The notes under the pieces were generated by a model. The model did no database searches. It saw nothing but the letters and a program-made list of their open reading frames with translations, and had not been told where the DNA came from. From Candidatus Danuiimicrobium aquiferis (GTDB lineage: Bacteria; Omnitrophota; Omnitrophia; Omnitrophales; Danuiimicrobiaceae), in the NCBI GenBank assembly GCA_001804285.1, contig MHFR01000043.1, positions 22,970-86,969 of the forward strand: a stretch of 64,000 nucleotides of DNA, written 5' to 3'. A program made the position numbers and the translations under genes. Below are positions 24,608 through 27,900 of the stretch, piece by piece. The stretch's first letter is position 1, and every line of letters starts with the position of its first letter.

Positions 24608-24964
24608 TCATTTCAGAAGCCTAGTCGATAAAATTTTTCCGGTCTGAAAATCAATTTGATGGGCCAAGCCGCTCCAAGCATATCCCATCAACTCTCCTTT
24701 TTCTGTTAGCCAAATATTTGTGAAAGCATTTGCTTGGCCCTTTATCCCTTCAGGTTCTTCTACCGTCCAAACCTTAGCCCCGCTTTCATCGAATCGATGC
24801 ACATTCTTTGCCCCTTCTTTCGGGTCAAACGCAGCCGTCAGTACTATAACTGAGTCCTGACATTGTATTACCTTATCTATCTTCACTTTAAAATGTATTT
24901 TTTCTTCGCCTTTATCTGAAGATACCCGAATAGCATTTTCTTCTTGTTTTATATCTCTGATCAT
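24608..24964 (-). CDS. Hypothetical protein (118 aa), candidate immunity-like partner of the giant protein
   Basis: Its ATG overlaps the giant gene's stop codon as ATGA, consistent with translational coupling. Confidence 0.5.
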   Translation of the reverse strand: MIRDIKQEENAIRVSSDKGEEKIHFKVKIDKVIQCQDSVIVLTAAFDPKEGAKNVHRFDESGAKVWTVEEPEGIKGQANAFTNIWLTEKGELMGYAWSGLAHQIDFQTGKILSTRLLK

Positions 24965-27900
24965 AATGACCTCGTGTTTTTAAACCAATCTTTAAGGAAT
25001 TCTCTTTCCGCTTCGTCTTCCAACATAATCTCAAGTTGTGTTTGATTCGGAGAATCTGAAAAAATGGGGTTAACTGTAGATTCTCTGATAGCAACAGCTC
25101 TGTCTGGAGATGGCACAAAGTCAGAAACCATTGTTGGCTTGGTTGGAAGCGCAAGCCGTTCCTGCAATAGCTCGGCAAAATTTCTATTTGTATTTTGAGC
25201 TTCTAATTTGAGCGCCTCAAAATCTGTTTTCCTCATAAGCCAAGTACCTACAGTATTTGATTCACCATGAATCCTCATAAATCCTTCTGCGGTTAAATCA
25301 GCCCCAGAGCGAACATATTCTGTGACCGGAAATCCCGGTTTGTGCGGTTTTGGATTATACGTTTCGGGATACGCCTTGTTCACTTCGACAGCATCCCGCC
25401 TGAATATTTTACTCCTTGCTTTAGAATAATCAACAAGTCGTCTATTTGCGACATTCTTCAAGTCATGAACAGAATCTACTTGATTGATCCATTTCGCTTC
25501 AAACTCTGCGTTTCTAAACAAATCATCTAATTTACTGGCATCTGGATGCATTGGATCTTTTAAAATCATTCTTACCCAATCGTCAATTGTATTATCAACA
25601 GTTCCAACAACCGCTTTGCCAACCGACCTAATCGACAACCCAAAGCTCATCAACTGGAAACCTCTCATAATTTCGTTAAAAGCATGGCCTCCAATCGAAA
25701 GGCCTTTCATAGTTTTTTCATTTAATGACATTTCTCGCCAATTATTTTTCAATTGCCCATATTCATTAAAAATGTCATCGAGTTCAGTCCCAATCAGGAC
25801 AGTGTCCACCACGCCAACTGCAAACGCCTCCAACAAGTCAAGGGATAGATCATTTTGGAGAATCGGAATCTGTGCTTTTAACGCATCATATCCCGGTTGA
25901 AGAAAAGATCTGACTTTGTGAATCGCCTCTATGCCCCCGTTATAAAGATCCTGCTGTTTTAATTGTATTTGTTCAATCCATGAACTCCCACTTGTCGTTT
26001 CAGCGGTTTGATGGTCCACGATAGAAGACATCACACCATTGATCGCAGATTGATTTAAATCTAGCATTTCATTTCGCAATCCTTCATCCATATGGATCTC
26101 AAATCCTTGATTCATTCCTTCAGGATCAAAATACTGCGCCATCTGGATTGCTCCAGCAACAGGCCCAGCGCTTGCAGTAGTGAAATTAATAAACTGTGTG
26201 TCCTGCACTGCTGTAATTTTCCCATCTGAATAATAATTTGTTTCCCCGGTATCCCAATTCCGAAGCACGCCGGATTCAATCTTGAAACTTTCTTCCGGAT
26301 TTTTCGATAGTACAAGCGGCTGATCTGCTGTCCCGAAAAATGTTAATGAGTTACCGCCGCTTTGAACCATATCAATCTGAACGATTTCAGTCTCTCTGAT
26401 AGTTAAATGAAGGGTTTCACTCCCGTTTGTAAATACGACTTCTCCGTTTCTCAGGAGATAATTTCCGTCTTTATCAAAAACATATTCGCCTTTCTCCATA
26501 TGATTCCCAAATTTACGAGCAAGCAACTGCGTTTCATCTTCGGTTAAGATAAATTTGCTATCACCGACCGTGTATTCATGAACGGAAACGTTGTCAAGCG
26601 TTGTCACAGTAAAATCTTTTGCTTGCCGTTTGGCTTTGAAATACTCGCTTACATTGTGTCCAGATTTAAGAATTGCTTCAGCCGTATTGCGACCAATAAT
26701 GTCATTTGCATACTCCTCGAAAAAGTCAAAAATATCGCGGCTTCCTTTTTGCGTAGCGAAGGTGACAAGCTGGGACAGATAGAAAGTTTTTTCTGTTAAA
26801 GTCAGATGTTTTCCACCAAGTTTAACTAAATCTTCAACGGTATCTTTGAGACCTCCGGTCATCCCGACAAGAAATCTTGCCCCGGCATTTCGTTGATCTA
26901 ACGTATCAGTCAACCCCTGAACACCGCCAACGAGTCCACGTAACCCAAGTGAAATCAGTACAGGATTTACATCAAGAGCATCTCCGATCAACGATGATCC
27001 GATGCTAACCATTCCACTAAGTGTAGCCTCATTAAGGATCGATCTTTTCAGTGTGCTCCAGATCGATTCTTCATTGTATGGATTGCTTACATAGATGGCG
27101 GTTCCGTCATCGCGATAGCCAATTACAACATCTGAAAACCGGCCGGTAAGGTTGCCCACGATGGCACTCACAGGCAGACCAATTAGCTGAGCGATCCGTG
27201 GATTTAAGCCCATGGAGCGGCCAATAAATTCAATTCCTCCGAGTGTAAGTTTGCTGGTAACTTGTGGGGCAATATCGATTAAAGCGGCTTTTAAGGTGAG
27301 ATTCGGGTTGAAATAAGCGCCAAGTGCAGCACTTCCAACCAAAGACAAAGCTTGAGTAACGGGTGGCGGCAAATCAAGTTTTAAACCAATCTCTGAAACG
27401 CCCTGGAGCATTAAGCCCTGAAGTCCGCTTTGAATGAAACTGGAAGTACTACCACCTATCCCGACTGCCCCGAATCCGATAAATGCGCTGGCTAAACGAG
27501 TGAATGTATTATTTAATCCAAAACCTTCAAACCCTTTTGATAAATTATAATTCAAACTAGCAGCAATAATATTTCTTGAAACTATCTGCTCCACGGAAAA
27601 TCTTGCCGACGCACTTCCTGCTCCCGCAATCTCGGGATGAGCAAGGTACGTGTTGATTTTCATAATTCCAGATCCGAGCGTTTTAAATCCTCCCGAAAAT
27701 CCGTTCTTCACAAATTGAAATGCATTCTGGAAAAACCGTCCAACATAATGAACTGCCTGCATCATCTGATGGCCGATCGCTGCAAATCCGGATTTGAGTG
27801 CTCCGAAAAATCCTTGCTGGGCAACCGCGCTGTAGGCCATTTTCACTCCGTTAACCACCCATTGGCCCACGCTTCCAACGATTCCAATAATTCCAGCGAC

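Follow-up and report, generated by a model that had tools for sequence, protein, structure and literature searches.

The 64,000-nucleotide (nt) stretch of DNA analysed here, hereafter the window, derives from Candidatus Danuiimicrobium aquiferis RIFCSPLOWO2_12_FULL_44_17, a member of the Omnitrophota (matching contig MHFP01000073.1), and harbors on its minus strand a giant gene for a cell-surface protein of 5,712 amino acids (aa). The subject of this work is the C-terminal domain of that protein, hereafter the tip, together with the small open reading frame (ORF) that overlaps the end of the giant gene. The pair had been flagged in an earlier note, made from the sequence alone, as a candidate polymorphic toxin with its immunity gene. 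Window coordinates for the three elements are as follows.

24961..42099, minus strand: giant gene, encoding the cell-surface protein; domain order from Pfam, NCBIfam and a hydropathy scan
24964..25422, minus strand: C-terminal tip (aa ~5560-5712), TNT-like domain and putatively an NAD(P)+ glycohydrolase; from an AlphaFold2 model, Foldseek, a family alignment and a carrier survey
24608..24964, minus strand: ORF118, 118 aa, DUF7957 (PF25857), putative immunity protein; from precomputed Pfam, AlphaFold2 and its position directly downstream of tip homologues

The giant gene starts with GTG; public records list a product of 5,709 aa from the next ATG. From the N-terminus to the middle, the protein presents a hydrophobic signal anchor, ~12 OmpL47-type/Big Ig-like domains and a LamG-like / 3-keto-disaccharide-hydrolase-like domain, followed towards the C-terminus by YD/RHS-like repeats, a weak glucoamylase-like region, an ILEI-like domain, a coiled coil, a transmembrane (TM) pair, a hydrophobic region, a pre-tip region and the tip. 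Its description as a giant YD-repeat protein holds only loosely: Pfam RHS_repeat matches aa 2800-4300 (E-value 7.5e-11), but there are only ~7 YDxxG motifs, and neither a Rhs core model nor a PAAR domain was matched anywhere in the protein in Pfam or NCBIfam. The last 1,513 aa return zero matches in both collections, even at E ≤ 10. The TGA stop of the giant gene and the start of ORF118 overlap in an ATGA tetranucleotide (24961-24964), with a GAGG 7 nt upstream of the ORF118 ATG; the sequence thus bears out the earlier observation that the next gene, of 118 aa (24608-24964), begins on the stop codon.

The last ~150 residues were modelled with AlphaFold2 from a 19-sequence alignment and adopt a compact alpha/beta fold from ~aa 5565 to the end (mean predicted local distance difference test, pLDDT, 84; predicted template modelling score 0.75), whereas the linker ahead of aa ~5565 is disordered in the model. 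Together with the fact that homologues from outside align only to ~aa 5549-5712, this agrees with the proposal of a discrete C-terminal module of ~150 residues. The low-complexity sequence that was said to lie directly before it is not there: entropy over 40 residues keeps within the normal range (3.6-4.0 bits) beyond aa 5100, and the Gly/Ala-rich stretch is found ~500 residues upstream (aa ~4700-5080).

An exhaustive HMMER scan of 1.84 billion representatives, using the last 413 aa of the giant protein as query, returned 42 relatives. Most of them align at query positions ~250-395, that is aa ~5549-5694 of the giant protein, and a few Omnitrophota-type relatives align across the entire query. 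In the 32 relatives checked (108-824 aa), the tip match ends 0-31 residues from the C-terminus; the domain also terminates longer proteins (P0032, 5,964 aa; P0037, 1,255 aa; P0024; P0047). What precedes it differs widely, as the N-terminal parts of the relatives carry DUF6861, Tox-PAAR-like with PAAR, or DUF637 with Fil_haemagg repeats, all familiar as carriers of toxins. A genome scan seeded with a tight alignment of the tip (A5) returned 18 loci, among them a canonical Rhs protein with a ...DPLGL motif (L023) and a CdiA-like protein of Aeromonas dhakensis (L018). In the archaeon Haloterrigena salina (L027 19-3710, NZ_AOIS01000016.1) the same tip, followed by DUF7957, ends a protein that is at least 1,118 aa long and rich in acidic repeats, its ORF being open at the locus end; the module therefore spans the boundary between bacteria and archaea. 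Altogether the family ranges over Pseudomonas, Aeromonas, Legionella, Planctomycetota, Firmicutes and one haloarchaeon.

At the level of homology, this occurrence at the C-termini of unrelated carriers is what defines the C-terminal domains of polymorphic toxins: the tip family is mobile among N-terminal delivery architectures, as a toxin domain of a polymorphic toxin sensu Zhang/Aravind 2012 should be. No Pfam model covers it, and the tip is a putative toxin domain of a previously unannotated family. Other searches were less productive. A homologue search in a word-indexed database, run with the last 413 aa, came back empty and missed even the giant protein itself; proteins that are very long or partial are evidently absent from that database. 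In the PDB, sequence searches with the tip and with the tip-family profile gave no meaningful match, and genome and metagenome scans seeded by a single pre-tip sequence found no loci.

The tip does not travel alone. Its homologues were retrieved without reference to ORF118, and the loci were then inspected with our own DUF7957 hidden Markov model (HMM). In 17 of the 18 genome loci the tip is followed on its own strand, at a distance of 0-30 nt, by the start of an ORF that matches this HMM (E-values 1e-14 to 1e-23); the remaining locus, lacking a DUF7957 neighbour, holds a partial tip only. All three related Omnitrophota loci (L007, L008, L032) have the DUF7957 gene behind the tip. Such near-constant adjacency is the pattern expected of a toxin-immunity pair, the second hallmark of polymorphic toxins being an immunity gene that lies immediately downstream and co-varies with the toxin domain, a position that DUF7957 takes behind the tip.

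Truncated copies tell a similar story. In Legionella lytica (L010 5155-6638, CP071527.1) a 94-aa Pfam-TNT fragment and a 76-aa ORF are followed by a 95-aa tip-family fragment and DUF7957, with glucosaminidase fragments adjoining, which looks like an orphan toxin-immunity array; in a Lachnospiraceae contig a tip fragment and DUF7957 sit between flanking IS110 transposase genes. Both resemble orphan toxin-immunity cassettes. Elsewhere, a 257-aa protein ending in the tip domain is followed by DUF7957 and adjoined by prophage tail, holin and amidase genes.

ORF118 itself is a real gene, as 24 homologues from several phyla (alignment A7) have conserved motifs in common; the five closest are 55-63% identical. 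In L007, L008 and L009, where the upstream DNA is readable, the homologues follow orthologous giant genes with an identical 4-nt overlap. Precomputed Pfam annotation gives a DUF7957 match for ORF118 and all its homologues; our own Pfam and NCBIfam scans of ORF118 gave nothing at E ≤ 10, the Pfam copy used containing no PF25857 model, and a PDB sequence search with it gave no meaningful match. A literature search returned no papers on DUF7957 and one irrelevant mention of DUF6861. The protein has no hydrophobic N-terminus or signal peptide on reading of the sequence, as had been stated before, which is consistent with a toxin having a cytoplasmic target. It is near neutral and not acidic as described earlier, with an isoelectric point (pI) of 6.3 and 18 D+E versus 17 K+R.

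The AlphaFold2 model of ORF118 is all-beta, with ~11 strands (pLDDT 85), and in a fold search it matches blades of PQQ, BamB and WD40 propellers (template modelling score, TM-score, by query ~0.6). Similarly, a PDB search with the DUF7957 family profile picks up PQQ-repeat proteins (E ~1e-3), the match running through the repeat motif N-x-Y-A-x-D-x-x-G-x-x-x-W, so that DUF7957 is predicted to be a PQQ-like beta-propeller fragment. The known NADase immunity chains Tsi6, Tni2, RhsI1 and IFT are not among the top 50 fold matches, all of which are beta-propellers, and the profile search of the PDB likewise returned PQQ-propeller proteins and no known NADase immunity protein. That none appears fits the published finding that Tsi6, Tni2 and RhsI1 have no kinship among one another (PMC10539506). 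The C-terminal residue is K or R in 22 of 24 DUF7957 proteins (last column of A7), and is Lys118 in ORF118 (codon 24611-24613). Published NADase immunity proteins each put a basic residue into the active site, Tni2 using its C-terminal Arg153 in Tne2 (PMC10539506); by analogy, the C-terminal Lys/Arg of DUF7957 may be a Tni2-like inhibitory residue.

As to what the tip may do, Foldseek against the PDB ranks Tne2 (6b12_A) best, with marginal scores (probability 0.97, E-value 0.047, TM-score 0.55 by target length), and places Serratia Rhs1-CT (6xtd_A) and the Aspergillus fumigatus NADase AfNADase (8pmr) at ranks 3 to 5. The three are treated as TNT-type NAD(P)+ glycohydrolases with a common palm domain and one strictly conserved Gln (PMC10539506). 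An alignment of 24 tip-family sequences has six invariant residues (P5585, R5609, W5620, L5651, P5655 and Q5688 in giant-protein numbering), with H5611 and R5672 conserved in at least 90%. Q5688 is the sole invariant Gln of the family and sits in the last conserved strand in a TQ[YL]E motif (Q-L-E in the giant protein). At the level of sequence it would correspond to the strictly conserved Gln of TNT-type NADases. The tip is probably a TNT-like NAD(P)+ glycohydrolase, a judgement that combines the predicted fold with this residue pattern.

Taken together, we regard it as probable that the giant protein of Ca. D. aquiferis ends in a toxin distantly related to TNT-type NAD(P)+ glycohydrolases and that the cytoplasmic DUF7957 protein is its cognate immunity protein. 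The idea of a polymorphic-toxin arrangement, in which a toxin and its immunity gene are coupled in translation, is sustained by the modular tip and by the DUF7957 neighbour in nearly every genome locus.

A number of observations weigh against this interpretation, some against the polymorphic-toxin label and others against the enzyme. The same tip family is present in all orthologues found (L007, L008, L032, P0007, P0024, P0047), a sample of ~5 lineages, and within those ~5 lineages no orthologous carriers with different tips were seen, contrary to the variable C-terminal tip announced in the earlier note. The giant gene of L007 is colinear with that of the window over 3,300 residues at ~50% identity, and in this comparison identity rises to 63-66% in the tip (aa 5570-5669), which ranks with the best conserved segments. 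L032 was retrieved through an alignment of the region upstream of the tip, a seed that does not bias retrieval toward the tip, and it too bears this tip, with DUF7957 as the overlapping next gene. At a greater distance, the giant relatives P0024 and P0047 terminate in diverged tips of this family. As far as these data go, the tip family appears polymorphic as domain shuffling between carriers across phyla and not as strain-level tip swapping within this lineage. Of the two outcomes that the earlier note had said would tell against it, an invariant C-terminus is what we observe, while a small ORF absent or unlinked in other genomes is clearly contradicted. On the side of the enzyme, Pfam TNT (PF14021) does not match the giant tip even at E ≤ 10. 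Below threshold, TNT matches 2 of the 24 family members (E ~0.005) and Ntox10 matches 5; one relative is named DUF4237 in UniRef, which we take to be the former name of Pfam TNT; and hhalign places the G..P.F..G..Q.EL segment of the tip onto the Pfam-TNT fragment from Legionella with an E-value of 0.0085 but only 4.7% probability. These Pfam and hhalign signals for TNT kinship are weak but consistent, each below the curated threshold, and for that reason the tip is called TNT-like here and is not filed under Pfam TNT. Finally, the Rhs autoproteolysis motif DPxGL-x(n)-DPxG[WL] was not found before the tip, a single DPAGL occurring at aa 3518, ~2,000 residues before it, so the layout is not that of a Rhs protein. 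A canonical Rhs cage with autoproteolytic release was accordingly rejected, cleavage motif and core model both being missing.

The alternative that fares best keeps the toxin-immunity pair and changes the enzyme: the tip could be an ADP-ribosyltransferase (ART), or another NAD+-using or unrelated enzyme, acting on a macromolecular target. The weak fold matches leave room for it, the R...Q-x-E pattern resembles that of R-S-E type ARTs, the weak Pfam match in five of 24 relatives is to Ntox10 and not to TNT, and the Tne5 preprint shows that sequence alone cannot separate ART-like folds from NADase activity. Yet the three best structural matches are all TNT-type glycohydrolases and not transferases, and the lone invariant Gln lies at the expected C-terminal strand, fitting the TNT-type signature. 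We consider this alternative unlikely.

ORF118 might instead be a chaperone, adaptor or co-secreted accessory factor for the folding or export of the tip. A beta-propeller fragment is a generic protein-binding scaffold, and strict adjacency would suit a dedicated chaperone as well. DUF7957, however, goes with the tip under every type of delivery, be it PAAR-like/type VI secretion system (T6SS), CdiA-like, Rhs, archaeal or giant protein, which argues against a role tied to one secretion route, and it is retained beside truncated tip fragments in the manner of orphan immunity genes. An accessory role in place of immunity is thus very unlikely.

Still less probable is a non-toxic tip, that is a housekeeping or structural end-domain of an adhesin, conserved with ORF118 because of some unrelated shared function. 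It would account for a tip better conserved among orthologues than the remaining giant protein, and the published surveys of Omnitrophota giant proteins report no toxin tips; against it, canonical toxin carriers (Rhs with DPxGL, CdiA-like, Tox-PAAR-like) end in the same domain, and it is also found by itself, encoded by a small gene that is paired with DUF7957.

Under the reading preferred here, a TNT-like toxin with DUF7957 as its immunity protein, the tip would hydrolyse NAD(P)+ in the cytoplasm of a target cell by means of the invariant Gln5688 and the conserved Arg5609 and His5611. In the producer, DUF7957 would bind the tip and block its active-site cleft, possibly by the C-terminal Lys/Arg as Tni2 does with its C-terminal Arg, and the ATGA overlap would couple translation such that immunity is produced together with the toxin. 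Given an NADase-like tip with an overlapping putative antidote gene, the giant protein probably serves, at least partly, in toxin delivery. Its long N-terminus (Ig-like, LamG-like and glycoside-hydrolase-like domains, YD repeats) would adhere to the target cell, and a C-terminal cassette consisting of the TM pair, the hydrophobic Gly-rich region and the pre-tip would carry the tip across membranes. Two further parts of the giant protein belong to this cassette.

26860..28032, minus strand: TM-like pair and Gly/Ala/Ser-rich hydrophobic region; part of a C-terminal cassette also found in shorter stand-alone proteins (hydropathy/entropy scan, BLASTP)
25423..26202, minus strand: pre-tip region, aa 5300-5559; accompanies the tip in the shorter proteins P0007 and (C-terminal part only) P0010

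By hydropathy and entropy scans, aa 4690-4752 form two strongly hydrophobic TM-like segments, followed by the Gly/Ala/Ser-rich hydrophobic region (aa ~4753-5080). The pre-tip region is acidic (pI 4.6) and, judged by eye, mostly helical; it may be an entry or translocation module. In BLASTP comparisons, P0007 consists of a signal peptide, pre-tip and tip and is 41% identical to aa 5303-5712 of the giant protein, while P0010 consists of the hydrophobic region and the tip. On the related Omnitrophota contig L008, a second gene (3045-4235) after the DUF7957 and small-TM genes encodes a signal peptide and matches aa 4620-4978 up to the contig edge; this gene could be a short paralogous copy of the C-terminal cassette. 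These shorter copies suggest, by sequence comparison, that aa ~4500-5712 form a self-sufficient delivery cassette to which the long adhesive N-terminus was added.

Just ahead of the TM pair, aa ~4500-4690 (window ~28000-28600, minus strand) have by eye the look of a C39-like peptidase domain whose catalytic Cys is replaced (…HFGQSAYLALKEML…DHYIQIT…). For Omnitrophota giant genes, domains of C39-like type have been reported close to TM anchors at the C-terminus (bioRxiv 10.1101/2023.11.21.568195). Here, neither Pfam nor a PDB sequence search supported this candidate.

We may speculate further that some Omnitrophota giant surface proteins deliver toxins on their own, as self-contained devices, with no call for a dedicated secretion system: the first ~4,500 residues from the N-terminus would bind a prey or host cell, a C-terminal cassette of ~1,100-1,200 residues (TM hairpin, Gly-rich hydrophobic region and acidic pre-tip domain) would import the TNT-like NADase into the target cytoplasm, and DUF7957, as a new immunity family made from a PQQ-like propeller fragment, would plug the active site by its C-terminal Lys/Arg. 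As a whole this proposal is possible but less likely than not. No T5, T6 or T7 secretion genes are visible near the giant gene, whose neighbours are a 1,618-aa ORF, two-component regulators and unannotated small ORFs. Were self-contained delivery true, it would provide a concrete killing mechanism for the proposed predatory or parasitic lifestyle of Omnitrophota nanobacteria. The preferred reading by itself, if right, has consequences too: DUF7957 would acquire a function open to testing, that of immunity partner to a toxin domain with no annotation, and the NAD(P)+-depleting Tne/TNT effectors would be extended by a new toxin family and a new immunity fold. It would also tie an Omnitrophota giant protein, in a phylum without cultured members, to toxin delivery, where published work discusses only adhesion and cell-wall degradation. 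Both the tip (~150 aa) and ORF118 (118 aa) are short enough for direct testing in E. coli.

Downstream of ORF118 the following two ORFs are found.

24041..24523, minus strand: ORF160, 160 aa, named YdhG-like domain-containing protein in UniRef; stands between DUF7957 and the small TM ORF in this species only
23832..24029, minus strand: small ORF of 55-65 aa with two TM segments; homologue of the 60-aa ORF after DUF7957 in L007 (10348-10530) and L008 (2811-2993)

ORF160 lies 84 nt downstream of ORF118 and has a lower G+C content than its neighbours (0.36 versus 0.42). The earlier note counted it as a second small ORF following the pair; it does exist, and on comparative grounds it is outside the conserved tip-DUF7957 module, since tblastn matches it only in contigs of the same species and found it nowhere beyond. 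In L007 and L008 its place is empty, with DUF7957 directly preceding a 60-aa two-TM ORF through a 4-nt ATGA overlap. ORF160 has the appearance of a lineage-specific insertion that separates DUF7957 from the small TM ORF. The profile comparison suggested in the earlier note yields DUF7957 for ORF118, through precomputed Pfam, and no Pfam or NCBIfam match for the giant C-terminus or, even at E ≤ 10, for ORF160. That ORF160 is a second or orphan immunity gene of the locus, as its shared orientation with ORF118 and the lack of a predicted terminator between them could suggest, is highly improbable in view of its absence from L007 and L008, its restriction to same-species contigs, its YdhG-like name, its lower G+C and its lack of profile matches. 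The small two-TM ORF, in turn, may be a third member of the Omnitrophota operon, e.g. a membrane partner.

On the other side, the 1,618-aa ORF (42139-46995, minus strand) ends 40 nt upstream of the giant gene; its sole match is Glucodextranase domain B-like (E-value 4e-10), and it is probably a second surface protein in the operon of the giant gene. A two-component cluster adjoins the toxin operon (17883-23796). It comprises two histidine kinases of the HisKA_7TM type (18682-20886, 20783-23023) together with three response regulators that have a receiver domain only; the regulator at 23422-23796 lies on the same strand as the toxin operon, and no terminator is predicted ahead of it. Some 10-15 kb away from the toxin locus, two minus-strand genes within 9215-15340, for a coupling protein like TraD/VirD4 (9215-11068) and for an adenine methyltransferase like BREX PglX (13619-15340), hint at a mobile or defence island nearby.

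Among the closest characterized systems is Tne2-Tni2 of Pseudomonas protegens (T6SS; PDB 6B12). Tne2 is the best structural match of the tip, and in both cases a C-terminal toxin on a modular carrier is followed directly by its immunity gene, or putative immunity gene here; Tni2 inserts a C-terminal Arg into the active site, and DUF7957 proteins nearly always end in K or R. The differences are also clear, in that the tip-family profile finds no 6B12 chain at E ≤ 10, DUF7957 is PQQ-like beta-blade in its predicted fold with 6b12_B outside its top 50 fold matches, and the carrier of Tne2 is a PAAR effector while that of the tip is a 5,712-aa surface protein.

With the TNT domain (PF14021; Mycobacterium tuberculosis CpnT, AfNADase, Rhs1-CT of Serratia SJC1036) the tip shares the motif order R-x-G...aromatic, LP and G..P.F..G..Q-x-E with the invariant Gln. 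Unlike its members, the giant tip is missed by the Pfam model, which reaches two of the 24 relatives below threshold, and DUF7957 has no relation to the published immunity proteins of TNT-type NADases.

Rhs/YD polymorphic toxins such as Serratia Rhs1 and Rhs/Tne5 of P. gergoviae likewise combine YD-type repeats with a C-terminal NADase-type toxin and a small downstream immunity gene. The giant protein differs from them in having no Rhs core match, PAAR or DPxGL-x(n)-DPxGW, and its YD regions stop ~1,700 residues upstream of the tip. The key residues published for Tne5, compared by description only, are Lys/Glu as opposed to the R/Q pattern of the tip.

The Omnitrophota giant proteins described so far ('Archaeovorins', Dockerin-type; bioRxiv 10.1101/2023.11.21.568195) come from the same phylum and are likewise surface proteins of great length, in which Ig-like and carbohydrate-active domains are repeated and TM anchors lie near the C-terminus. 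There, the TM anchors are followed by SecA-related domains and cell-wall degradation is proposed, whereas the protein of the window ends in a putative toxin-immunity module; two published surveys of such proteins, this being one of them, make no mention of an NADase, a toxin tip or an immunity gene. The tip and DUF7957 appear to represent a genuine pair of toxin and immunity families, uncharacterised so far and borne here by an unusual carrier, for which we infer toxicity, NADase activity and delivery. By analogy, the pair would work like the Tne/TNT NADase effector-immunity pairs, within the general class of polymorphic toxin systems.

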